Source: Eledone cirrhosa
Lineage: Eukaryota
Length of the DNA: 64,000 bases
Direction: 5' to 3'
NCBI GenBank assembly: GCA_964016885.1
Contig: OZ024740.1
Coordinates: forward strand, 333,870,001-333,934,000
Shown here one piece after another: positions 2,531-60,431 of the stretch. The position numbers and the translations under genes are program-made. Numbering within the stretch: the first letter of the stretch is position 1; every line of letters starts with the position of its first letter. The notes beneath the pieces were generated by a model. It did no database searches, was not told the DNA's origin, and was given only the letters and a program-made list of their open reading frames with translations.

Positions 2531-3569
2531 TGAAAAAATGGGGAGAAGAATACTGCAGGTGGCACATGGATAACATGTAATAAAATGAGTCCCTCATCAG
2601 TGATTTGCCGACGATCATAGATATTTCATTGCATTAAAAATCATATACCTCACGTCGGTGCAATAATAACTAAATTAAGTTATTAGGACAATTAAACCGC
2701 GTAAAGCGAGTGAGACAAGATAACAACAAAGAGGAGAGCTAACCGTAGAGAGGAAAGGAACAAGCTAAATAGTTATTCGGTTAGCATAAGCTAGGTGAAT
2801 ATATAAGCGCTTAGAAAAAAGACCTTTCGGGATGAATCCAAATGTGAGAAAGAGAGAAAATGTTTTCGTCGCGAACGGGGTGAAGTGAGAAGGGGACAAA
2901 CAGTGAGTGAGTGGAAGTGTGAGGAAGAGTTAACTGACATGACAGAGGGGGCGAAAGAAAGTAGGAGAAACAGAGAGAACGAGGGAGCAGTAAGAGAGAG
3001 AGAGAGAAAAAAACAGAATCGCAGTGTAGGTAAATATATGTGAAAATATGGGGAGAAGAATACTGCAGGTGGCACATGGATAACATGTAATAAAATGAGT
3101 CCCTCATCAGTGATTTGCCGACGATCATAGATATTTCATTGCATTAAAAATCATATACCTCACGTCGGTGCAATAATAACTAAATTAAGTTATTAGGACA
3201 ATTATAACGCGTAAAGCGAGTGAGACAAGATAACAACAAAGAGGAGAGCTAACCGTAGAGAGGAAGGGAACAAGCTACATAGTTATTCTGTTAGCATAAG
3301 CTAGGTGAATATATGAGCGCTTAGAAAAAAGACCTTTCGGGATGAATCCAAATGTGAGAAAGAGAGAAAATGTTTTCGTCGCGAACGGGGTGAAGTGAGA
3401 AGGGGAGAAACAGTGAGTGAGAAAGTAGGAGAAAAAGAGAGAACGAGGGAGCAGTAAGAGAGAGAGAGAGAAAAAAAACAGAATCGCAGGTATATTAGGT
3501 ATATGATTTTTAATGCAATGAAATATCTATGATCGTCGGCAAATCACTGATGAGGGACTCATTTTATTA
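2531..3569 (-). mobile_element. Non-coding ~510-nt element: tandem dimer plus inverted short arm (retrozyme/non-autonomous PLE-like)
   Basis: Direct repeat with period 510 (2531-3039 and 3040-3489, second copy with an internal deletion); inverted copy 3497-3569; (TA)n on both sides; homologues at 19620-20130 and 28315-28718. Confidence 0.75.
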
Positions 3570-3964
3570 TATATATATATATATATATATATATATATAT
3601 ATTGACATGTACTTATGTATGTATAAGTGGGGGTGCATATGCCACTATGCACACGTGTGTATACTGTGTGCACATAACATACATAATTTACCGAATTATT
3701 TGTCCATCTACTGATGTATTTATTTTTTTTATTTTATTTAGTTTTATTTCATCATATTTCTTTCATTTACTTACGAATTTATATGTTTATATATGCAATT
3801 CTCTATATAAACTCCTTTTAGAACTCCTTAAAATATCCCTCCATCTATTCATCTCCCATTTCGATGTGAGAATGTCTGTAGGTACTCACAACTCTACCTA
3901 TTTTATATTTTACCCTTTATGCTCTCGGCATTGGTGTGGCACTTGTAAAGGTATATACGTATAT

Positions 3965-5546
3965 ATGTATTAATATATATATATATATTAATATATATAT
4001 AAATATATATATATATATATTAATATATATATAAATATATATATATATATATTAATATATATATAAATATATATATATATATAAATATATATATAAATAT
4101 ATATATATATATATTAATATATATATATATATATTTATGTATATATATATATATATATATATATATATTTATGTATATATATATATATATATATATATAT
4201 ATATATATATTTATGTATATATATATATATTTATGTATATATATATATATATATATATATATTTATGTATATATATATATATATATATATATATTTATGT
4301 ATATATATATATATTTATGTATATATATATATATATATATATATATATATATATATATATATATATTTATGTATATATATATATATTTATGTATATATAT
4401 ATATATATATATATATATTTATGTATATATATATATATTTATGTATATATATATATATTTATGTATATATATATATATATATATATATTTATGTATATAT
4501 ATATATATTTATGTATATATATATTTATGTATATATATATATATATATATATATATATATTTATGTATATATATATATATATATATATTTATGTATATAT
4601 ATATTTATATATATATATATATATATATATATTTATGTATATATATATATATATATATATATTTATGTATATATATATATATATATATATTTATGTATAT
4701 ATATATATATATATATATATATATATATATATATATATTTATGTATATATATATATATATATATATATATATATATATATATATTTATGTATATATATAT
4801 ATATATATATATATATATATATATTTATGTATATATATATATATATATATATATTTATATATATATTTATGTATATATATATATATATATATATATATTT
4901 ATATATATATATATATTTATATATATATATTTATATATATATATATATATTTATATATATATATATATATTTATATATATATATATATATTTATATATAT
5001 ATATATATATATATATATATATATATATATTTATATATATATATATATATATATATATATATATATATATTTATATATATATATATATATATATTTATAT
5101 ATATATATATATATATATATATATTTATATATATATATATATATATATATTTATATATATATATATATATATATATATATATATATATATATATATATAT
5201 ATATATATACATATATATATATATATATTTATATATATATATATATATATATATATATATATATATATATATATATACATATATATATATATATACATAT
5301 ATATATATATATTTATATATATATATATATATATATATATATATATATATATATATATACATATATATATATATATACATATATATATATATATTTATAT
5401 ATATATATATATATATATATATATATATATATATATATACATATATATATATATATACATATATATATATATATTTATATATATATATATATATATATAT
5501 ATATATATATATATATATATATATATATATATATATATATATATAT
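3965..5546. repeat. Interrupted (TA)n microsatellite
   Basis: TA dinucleotide with TTTATG, TTTA and TACA interruptions. Confidence 0.98.
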
Positions 5547-5742
5547 GAAAACAGGGAGAAAGAGACGATTATTAGGAAGAACAATTTTTTTTTTCCTTTT
5601 TAGTTCCTCTCACTCTTTTTTTCTGGGTTAGAACATGATTAAAACGAAATGTTTTAATTTGTGTGAAGTGTTAAGGTATTAGTTGATTTATTTATTATTT
5701 AACAATGCCATTTATTTATCTATTTATATATTTAATTATTGT

Positions 5743-5784
5743 CTATTACCGGTTTCAGCATTTTTATGCATTATCATATGATAG
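5743..5784 (-). ncRNA. Degenerate type I hammerhead in 3' UTR of the Neptune-like PLE
   Basis: Minus strand ctat-(cata)TGATAA-t-gcat-aaaa-atgc-t-GAAA-ccgg-TA-atag; core damaged. Confidence 0.55.
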
Positions 5785-6086
5785 TGAAATGTATAAGGTG
5801 CAACAACTTTTATGAAGTGAAAAGAAAAAGATAAAGGAAAAAAAGAGTGCATAATGTGGAACGTAAAATTCAATGTGGAAGAAAAAATAATGTTATTTAC
5901 AAGCAAAGTCATTGAAATTAACAGATCAAAATGTGTTAATACAGCAAGAGTGCTTAGTTGATCCATAATTCGGTGATGGAGGCAAATGGTGGACTTAGGT
6001 TTGATATGATTTCCCTTTTTACAGAGTTAATATGCAGGGGGAAGCAATTCTTGCTGGGTGATATTTAATTTATTTCAGAAAAAGGA

Positions 6087-6578
6087 TTAGGTAGGGTGTG
6101 AGGGAGGTAACTCTTGTAAATGTTTGATTGTTTGTTGCAGTTTTAGATTGGTCCGATTTTTAAAGCATTTTAAAGCATTAAGTAGGAGTTGAAATTTATT
6201 AATGAGATGTGTTTCCGTATTGGTACGTTGGATGAAAGTAGCGTTGTCTATGAATTTGTAAATGGGGAAAATTTTAATATTTGGATGTTGGTTGAGAGCA
6301 CAATTGGCGATATGTTCACTAAATGCAATCTTTCTGTATTCCTGTATTTTAATTTGTGATTTATGGATGGTCATATGGAGGATGTTTTTTGTCTGTCCTA
6401 TGTAGTGCTCTTGACAACCTGAGCAGGTCAAAACATACATAAGGTTTTCAGATGCACATGTAAAGTTGTGTTTAATTGTGAAACGTTGTCCTTGTTTGAA
6501 ATGGAATGTTGAACCTTTTATTAGATTTATGCATATGCCACAGTTGGGCCTTCCGCATTTTGTTACTGTAGGGTTCAT
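6087..6578 (-). pseudogene. PLE Zn-linker + GIY-YIG endonuclease fragment
   Basis: KCGRPNCGIC...FTCASENLMYVLTCSGCQEHYIGQT...HKSQI...FSEHI...E.HLINKF..LN. Confidence 0.88.
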
Positions 6579-58900: not shown

Positions 58901-58972
58901 TATATATATATATATATATATATGTAATATATATATATATATATATATATATATATATATATATATATATAT
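49968..58972. repeat. ~9-kb interrupted (TA)n array with higher-order structure
   Basis: TA with mostly TACA interruptions; recurring atctacac marker pairs. Confidence 0.97.
51638..51837. other. Assembly gap (200 N)
   Basis: Run of n. Confidence 1.
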
Positions 58973-59291
58973 AGAGAGAGAGAGAGAGAGAGAGTGTGTG
59001 TGTGAGAGAAATAGACAGGGAGAGAGTTGAATCTCATCTATATTAAAACTATATATATATATATATATATAATATATATATATATATGACAGCGATTAAT
59101 TAGTTTTTGCGAGGTTTTTATATGAAATCGAGTGTCGAAACAAATATTGCTATACTTGGGGAGGGTCATATTTGTGTAATATTGCGAGAATTACATACTC
59201 ACTGTTTGGTTGGTTTTCGCTTTTCGCTTCTTTGTCTTTAATATCGGTAATCAAATTTATGCGGTCCTCAATGAACCTCAATGGTCCTCAA

Positions 59292-59907
59292 TAGCTTAGA
59301 TAGGGCTAGACATAAGATAGGGAACGCCACCTCATGGTACAACAACCAGAGATACCAGAGTATCATGTTTGTGGATGCTACCCCTGGAGGGAAATTTGCT
59401 AACCAGTGTAGAAAGGCCCTGAGAAAGACCCACTTAAAGATTAAGGTGGTAGAAAAGCCAGGAACCACCCTAAAATCCCTGATCACCAAAACCTACCCTT
59501 TTAAGAAAACCCACTGTACTAATAGGAAGTGTATCATATGTAAGGTAAACCCCCGGATAAACTGTAAAACTAGAAACGTAGTCTATAGCATAAGATGTAC
59601 AGAGGGTACTTGTAGAAACATGACAACAACATACATAGGCGAAACAGCTCGTAGCATAGGTGAAAGGATAGACCAACACCGGGGGGATCTAAAAGGACGA
59701 AAAAACGGGCCAGTACTATACGAACATGCCAGACAACAACACAACGGTAACATAGACAACATAGAAATTAGAATAATATCTAAACATAGAAATGATCCAG
59801 CAGATAGGCAAATCAGAGAGGCCAGTGAAATAGAACTTAGAAGGCCAAGACTAAACAGAAAGAATGAATGGAATAACAACAACACTCAACAAACAACACT
59901 GACCTAA
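59292..59907 (+). CDS. PLE linker + GIY-YIG endonuclease (5'-truncated)
   Basis: YQSIMFVDATPGG, CTNRKCIIC, CKTRNVVYSIRC, YIGETARSIGER, RQIREA, LNRKNEW; paralogue of the 35177 ORF C-terminus. Confidence 0.9.
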
Positions 59908-60168
59908 GAGAAGTATAAATAAATAGATAAATAAATAAATAAATACATACACAAGCACAATAACAACAAACACATATAAACACACACTAGTAAACATAGA
60001 ACACATTAACCAATACACAGTCACCCAATCACGAACACACATGAAACAAAACACTATACACACACGCAAACGCATGCACAAATAAGACAAAATAAAATAA
60101 ACAAACAAACAAATAAATAAATAAATATATAAACAGACTAAATAAAGATGGCGGGAGGAATCTATAGC

Positions 60169-60210
60169 ACCACTGACGATGTTGCAGATGTGCAACGAAA
60201 GAACTTTGAT
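60169..60210 (+). ncRNA. Minimal type I hammerhead
   Basis: acca-CTGACGA-tgttgcagatgtgcaac-GAAA-gaac-TT-tgat. Confidence 0.78.
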
Positions 60211-60431
60211 AAACTATATATATGTGTTTGTGTCTATATTGTATCTGTATTATTTTTGACCGTTGGTCAGTCAATGACAACATTGAGGACCGCATAAATT
60301 TGATTACCGATATAAAAGACACAGAAGCGAAAAGCGAAAACCAACCAAACAGTGAGTGTGTTCTGTTATTAATTCTGGCAATATTACACAAATATGACCC
60401 TCCCCAAGTATAGCAATATTTGTTTCGACAC

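Follow-up and report, generated by a model that had tools for sequence, protein, structure and literature searches.

Insertions of endonuclease-bearing (EN+) Penelope-like elements (PLEs) are known to carry inverted second copies. One account (PMC3846280) gives the head-to-head arrangement as the commonest, with palindromic junctions and a tail that is optionally present on one of the inverted pseudo-long terminal repeats (pLTRs), where it overlaps the start of the open reading frame (ORF), and proposes self-priming. Another (PMC8557442) describes an inverted 5'-truncated copy, a tail of 30–40 bp often found at one end only and (TA)n targets, leaving the mechanism open. In vitro target-primed reverse transcription (TPRT) by PAc, a Poseidon PLE of Anolis, cuts and extends both target strands; a dimer is predicted, the tail is the sequence between two internal start sites, and the later steps are unvalidated (PMC11167929). 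The available text of PMC9977147 and PMC13282606 holds nothing further on structure. Here we describe insertions of this kind in 64,000 nt of the 3.0-Gb assembly of Eledone cirrhosa (contig OZ024740.1, positions 333,870,001 to 333,934,000; henceforth the window) and across the genome, in which one arm nearly always reaches a long end and the other a short one.

An initial annotation of the window had proposed some 12 asymmetric insertions of unrelated families. Opposed arms were sought by self-comparison of the window and are present at all 12 coordinate pairs; in ten, a long end on one arm is paired with a short end on the other, the two lying in (TA)n and offset by 44–110 nt, and two (11011/12008 and 59088/60431) deviate. 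The recurrent end motifs reported in the annotation are also present. By their sequence motifs the insertions are EN+ PLEs, and they share with EN+ PLEs in general (PMC3846280; PMC8557442, Fig. 2) the inverted 5'-truncated head-to-head copy at the 5' end, the palindromic junctions, the tail on one arm only and the pLTR and tail overlapping the ORF start, although the tails reported there are 30–40 nt long as against 44–110 nt here. We assigned them to families A to H:

32224..34363 (−), family A: inverted 5'-truncated arm with the long end, tail 32224–32281, 97.6% identical to the right arm over 2105 columns
34364..37335 (+), family A: 5'-truncated arm with the short end, extending ~880 nt more 5' than the long arm
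34364..36832 (+), family A: reading frames for reverse transcriptase (RT) and C-terminal GIY-YIG endonuclease, with one frameshift near 35141–35156; DKSG, YVDD, CX4CX2C linker and C-C/H-H endonuclease motif
9925..10984 (both strands), family A: head-to-head, left short and right long, inner breakpoints ~9 nt apart, centre 10423
11011..12008, related to A and G: non-overlapping arms, left 11011–11921 (−), right 11923–12008 (+) at the long end
59088..60431 (both strands), family G: GIY-YIG frame 59275–59907, left long end in (TA)n
15017..15218 (both strands), family B: left short and right long, tail 77 nt; 3' stub, probably of a Hydra-type PLE
41491..41690 (both strands), family B: left short and right long, offset 77 nt
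30991..32162 (both strands), family C: left long and right short, tail 67 nt; stub of a 3' untranslated region (UTR), Hydra-type PLE by motifs
41858..42060 (both strands), family C: left long and right short, offset 67 nt, centre 41992
28030..28266 (both strands), family D (237 bp): left short and right long, tail ~89 nt; 3' stub of a coding PLE, Hydra-type by motifs
14731..14992 (both strands), family E: left short and right long, tail 76 nt
39925..40529 (both strands), family F (605 bp): very young coding PLE, Hydra-type by motifs, tail 110 nt
2531..3569, family H: two tandem ~500-bp units (−) running to the long end, with an inverted short arm of 73 nt; offset 44 nt

The offset between long and short end is 57–58 nt in both family A insertions (9925/10984 and 32224/37335), and the second of these is joined at 34357–34363 across a microhomology of 6/7 nt. 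The F insertion (39925/40529) has its long arm (200 nt) nested inside the range of its short arm (410 nt). Of the two deviating insertions, 11011/12008 has a left arm that stops ~66 nt before the short site of its family, a position where none of 29 other copies ends, while the right arm of 59088/60431 runs 13 nt beyond the homologous short site into non-TA sequence, with short templated repeats at its junction (59263–59295).

Genome-wide counts bear out the fixed ends and their pairing. For families A and D we scored the best 40 of 182 (A) and of 925 (D) candidates, using queries placed inside both ends and taking 8 kb upstream for 37 of 41 A and 38 of 42 D matches. Nearly every anchor stopped at one of two sites (A 36/37, D 37/38, and 30/30 in F), so that the ends are non-random across the genome, as the annotation had required of its model. 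Among 73 distinct A and D anchors, 39 had a contiguous opposed arm, ten lay in complex loci that were left out (L127, L134, L140, L145, L146, L178, L180, L186, L190 and L191) and 24 were single, which makes the universality first claimed for the architecture an overstatement, as does family H, inverted in only one of 30 loci. Adding six more pairs from the same loci gave 45 contiguous pairs, and 43 of them combine a long with a short end (A 24/25, D 19/20). These queries were neutral as to end; the excess over independent site choice has p 3e-11, or 2e-5 if all ten excluded loci are counted against it. With queries anchored at the long end, the partner was short in all 29 family B pairs and in 19 cases versus one long in family E (30 loci), and the pairs seen in F and C, whose interiors were checked in part, are also long with short. 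Fourteen of the 30 family C loci (L062–L075) proved to be satellite and were dropped from the end counts.

The two sites are internal to the element. The family A pLTR runs into the ORF in L006 and L280, with both ends falling within the first 81 nt of the frame and followed by TATCG; in family D the two ends fall within the 5' UTR, with TATTTG coming next. Because the A ends are in the ORF start and the D ends in the 5' UTR, the arm ends would correspond to internal sites of a read-through RNA, and not to sites near the RNA 3' end as such, where the annotation had placed them. The element continues with TAT at seven of eight short ends (background 0.02–0.05 per site, p 4e-7), the exception being family C, with T next, or TATA in copies that end 4–6 nt beyond. 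TAT also follows the long ends of A, D and some H copies, and TAC that of C. Such a motif fits a 3-nt pairing with a primer ending in ATA-3', and primer microhomology is likely. One near full-length A copy (L280:890-5058) starts 81 nt before the long site of the 5' pLTR and carries an inverted arm that likewise reaches the long end; priming twice on a single tandem read-through RNA could account for this long+long pair.

At the centres of the insertions, the inner breakpoints of the two arms coincide more often than chance would allow. They lie no more than 10 nt apart in 8/24 A pairs (permutation mean 1.5, p 5e-5), 3/19 D pairs (mean 0.5, p 0.007) and 20/29 B pairs (mean 11.7, p 5e-5), or 11/43 for A and D combined, where ~2 are expected. 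Family B has a breakpoint hotspot or stop zone 126–142 nt from the long end; one near −160 in family D could stem from the query itself, and we make no claim for it. The 45 junctions have gaps of between −19 and +17 nt (22 overlaps, six blunt joins and 17 inserts, some of the latter visibly templated from adjacent sequence). As to 5' reach in the 43 pairs, the short arm extends further in 16 and the long arm in 15, and short arms reaching further are found in young F copies too. A model of equal lengths, in which two RTs move in step, fits only 2/43 pairs and was rejected. In 3/43 pairs (L155, L161 and L182), and in L232 and L293 of family F, the long arm consists of the tail only.

The arms of one insertion are also close relatives. 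Over the 24 A and 16 D pairs with enough overlap, window copies included, they differ at ~31 positions per kb, against 64–68 per kb between insertions, and private shared variants run at 3.6 per kb within versus 0.18 between insertions in A, and 7.4 versus 0.16 in D (20–45 times). In L164 a single internal deletion is common to both arms.

We lean, by a little, towards double TPRT on one RNA, with the two cDNAs joined by microhomology. The element protein would cut both strands of (TA)n, and the two cut ends would each prime a cDNA on one shared RNA, either end using a different one of the two sites; a predicted dimer would hold that one RNA, and each primer ending in ATA-3' would pair with UAU at its own site. 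The RT starting from the distal site would either stall, leaving a tail-only arm with the geometry of twin priming, or displace the first cDNA. Both RTs would then be halted by a common obstacle or by a break in the RNA, giving coincident inner ends, or would stop independently; microhomology-mediated end joining would link the 3' ends of the two cDNAs, followed by filling in. That both target strands prime at two fixed sites, as the annotation had proposed, is supported here and has been shown in vitro for a Poseidon PLE (PMC11167929). The joining of two cDNAs we infer, and the counts of pairs, breakpoints and variants favour it. The fixed sites, the single-site solo copies and the nested or tail-only long arms, present even in young copies, favour two cDNAs over a fold-back, while the strict pairing of different sites, the common source of the two arms and the coincidence of their inner ends speak for a single RNA. 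Insertion routes may be mixed, and gene conversion from arm to arm and later central deletions may have contributed.

In the twin priming of L1, the second strand primes internally on one RNA and yields an inverted arm with a microhomology junction; there the second site is variable and the arms do not overlap, whereas here it is fixed and the arms usually overlap. Polymerase-theta-type junctions are further background to the joining step. The annotation had read 11011–12008 as twin priming on a single RNA, and its geometry, with 28 nt of element coordinates missing between left-arm stop and right-arm start, agrees; its site does not recur, however, and the tail-only loci named above are better cases.

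One rival is a single cDNA that snaps back and copies itself, the short end being produced by endonuclease cleavage or TA annealing and unequal arms by asymmetric opening of the hairpin or later central deletion. It would deliver long+short pairing automatically, together with same-source arms, an excess of coincident inner ends and palindromic centres, and it stands close to the self-priming and endonuclease-resolution ideas of PMC3846280 and PMC8557442. We nevertheless consider it unlikely, since the short arm holds sequence missing from the long arm in 16/43 pairs, by up to ~3 kb (L130, L172), including pairs diverged by just 1–2% and young F copies, and a short arm that is longer as often as the long one (16 vs 15) argues against a simple fold-back. 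Tail-only long arms, single copies with only the short end and RT initiation at both sites in vitro (PMC11167929) also speak against it. Improbable to a similar degree is double TPRT from two RNAs of one source locus, by an asymmetric protein dimer with one site per subunit, in which coincident inner ends would reflect stalling of both RTs at common positions, together with annealing where palindromes occur locally. Two RNAs would account for either arm being longer, for the shared variants and for arm overlap without strand displacement, and the strong stop zone of family B suits them; they need an extra asymmetry rule, however, and coincidence exceeds a permutation null that keeps the hotspots and occurs away from them as well (B pairs at −199, −230, −270 and −100). 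An artefact of fold-back reads or of assembly is very improbable. The window does adjoin long (TA)n arrays and an N gap, and none of the matches listed for X1, X3, X4 and X24 when these reads were placed on 9930–12010 bridged a junction. The arms nonetheless differ by 1–15% and end at two distinct fixed sites with different flanks, both of which argue against an artefact, and the architecture recurs on many contigs in the seven families searched.

Several observations count against double TPRT on one RNA, or limit how far it can be pressed. Same-type pairs exist (short+short in L156; long+long in L192, L349 and the full-length copy L280), L134 and L191 are possibly further ones, and 24/73 anchors have no partner at all. 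The variants shared by two arms are also compatible with fold-back, with two RNAs transcribed from a single locus or with later gene conversion, and a fold-back would be expected to leave palindromic centres as perfect or near-perfect as those of L126 and of window 41550. For PAc, start-site use was no different between strands and initiation was described as non-homologous to the cut DNA (PMC11167929). Breakpoints are the ends of BLAST high-scoring segment pairs, good to a few nt, and the pair tables of B, C, E and F were read by eye.

Regarding the identity of the families, motifs read directly place RT and GIY-YIG endonuclease in one ORF in A, C, D and F. In family A the Pfam matches (RVT_1, E 1.6e-4; GIY-YIG, E 5.8e-4) are both below the curated cut-off. 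A PDB search gave a weak RT match only, and none of the data sets listed as matching a family A query was RNA. Only the endonuclease frame is seen in family G, an older relative of family B (L279) has a Hydra-type ORF upstream, and family E shows no ORF in 30 loci and has short arms. L006 and L280 (A), L179 and L167 (D) and L262 (C) show the pLTR arrangement of EN+ PLEs, in which one copy is inverted and a tail present on one side only extends over the start of the ORF. D and F have the DKT and RW motifs, the CxCX5C linker, the C-terminal endonuclease and the (TA)n target, and C has the DET/DKT region and 45–55% identity to D. By these motifs C, D and F are of Hydra type, and B probably is; as a clade (PMC8557442) Hydra shares with C, D and F the RW motif, DKT, CxCX5C linker, C-terminal GIY-YIG and (TA)n, but its units are described as <3 kb, whereas the 3' UTRs here are long (~2.6–3.4 kb in C) and the units larger. 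Family A has a CX2-5CxxC linker ahead of a C-terminal CCHH GIY-YIG endonuclease, which, as judged from these motifs, makes it Neptune/Nematis-type, the two taken together (PMC8557442). Naiad, with its N-terminal endonuclease and DKA motif, does not fit, the endonuclease being C-terminal in A, C, D and F. The N-terminal half of the family A ORF has low-complexity Asn/Thr/His-rich repeats (L130:553-3435, where the frame is uninterrupted for 961 codons, and the 5' part of the L151 ORF), recalling the Asn-rich inserts of PMC3846280.

The families are thus less unrelated than had been supposed, as A, G and the 11011 family share a common end at the ORF start and C, D, F and probably B form one clade. 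Nor are most of the presumed non-coding riders non-coding: longer copies identify the 237-bp D, the 605-bp F and C as 3' stubs of coding PLEs with Hydra-clade motifs, G is likewise a stub and B probably so. That part of the proposal may hold for family H, which looks non-coding and retrozyme-like from its sequence. It is a ~500-bp unit with 1758 exact pattern matches genome-wide, often in tandem at a spacing of ~490–580 bp. Retrozymes have been described as non-autonomous PLE derivatives (bioRxiv 10.64898/2026.07.22.740005). Non-LTR retrozymes are, like H, non-coding tandem units, and are further marked by a type I hammerhead in each unit and by circular RNA; H, with its PLE-like fixed ends, shows by eye only half a core.

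Hammerhead-like cores were seen by eye in A, C and E, with a variant in D. In the family A pLTR the core (CUGANGA – stem II – GAAA) lies at 37136..37186 (+) and its stem II folds; in the family C insertion 30991/32162 it lies at 32102–32135. Rfam gave no hammerhead for family A and HH9 for family C only at E 4.9, and the folds of these cores were no better than those of shuffles. Over window positions 1–46000, Rfam returned repeat-driven miRNA-like matches only, among the matches listed (150 of 158). The idea that inner ends mark the predicted hammerhead cut site was rejected, as it held, by eye, for one of nine coincident A pairs. The satellite at L062–L075 (G000:C28, ~30.50–30.78 Mb) is a 78-bp tandem repeat stemming from the part of family C immediately inside the short end, and every unit contains the hammerhead-like core; in L075 the array begins where an inverted long-end arm stops, as though the second arm had been multiplied many times over.

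A degenerate (TA)n array of ~16 kb with a 200-N gap occupies 42771–58973, and insertions cluster in or beside TA runs, often sharing one (10985–11010, 14993–15016, 32162–32223). At 42753–45354 a mirror duplication surrounds 1 kb of (TA)n, with family B long arms and ~45 nt of shared flank on both sides; unlike the PLE architecture, this may have arisen by inverted duplication or as an error of assembly. A broken PLE at 6087–8446 (−) retains RT, a CX4CxxC linker and C-terminal GIY-YIG over several frames, and a further repeat family shows inverted arrangements at 13714–13900, 15547–15788, 20637–21553 and 61396–61563. Abutting the 60431 end, a short frame at 60432–60575 (+), negative in Pfam and unconfirmed, resembles what we take to be the C-terminus of a Tc1/mariner transposase.

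The architecture itself is already known in PLEs, the families here are further members and most of the proposed mechanism is in print. PAc has, like our families, two adjacent internal start sites within the 5' part of the ORF, an AT-rich target and extension of both strands, but the available text is silent on inverted insertions, whereas here the ends pair long with short and are mostly followed by TAT (PMC11167929). What we add is the near-strict long+short pairing, the coincident inner ends, the relatedness of the arms, the nested long arms and the TAT after the ends; beyond the published descriptions of EN+ PLEs, we put numbers on pairing, on how often breakpoints coincide and on the identity of the arms. 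A literature search that included few subscription papers and no supplements found neither a count of long/short pairing for PLEs nor a proposal of two cDNAs on one RNA.

The origin of the inverted structures of PLEs has been stated as open (PMC8557442), and the steps after initiation as unvalidated (PMC11167929). The long+short rule, the inner-end coincidence and the nested long arms narrow the models, the model with one RNA and two sites is directly testable, and a large body of natural data is to be had from young families of high copy number, for example F. More tentatively, and at somewhat under even chances, we propose that at least two PLE clades integrate by an obligate two-site, one-RNA route, in which a dimer primes both strands via 3-nt UAU microhomologies at programmed sites. 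If true, one pathway would account for inverted copies and one-sided tails as well as for palindromic centres and twin-priming-like inserts, and would supplant the published self-priming idea.

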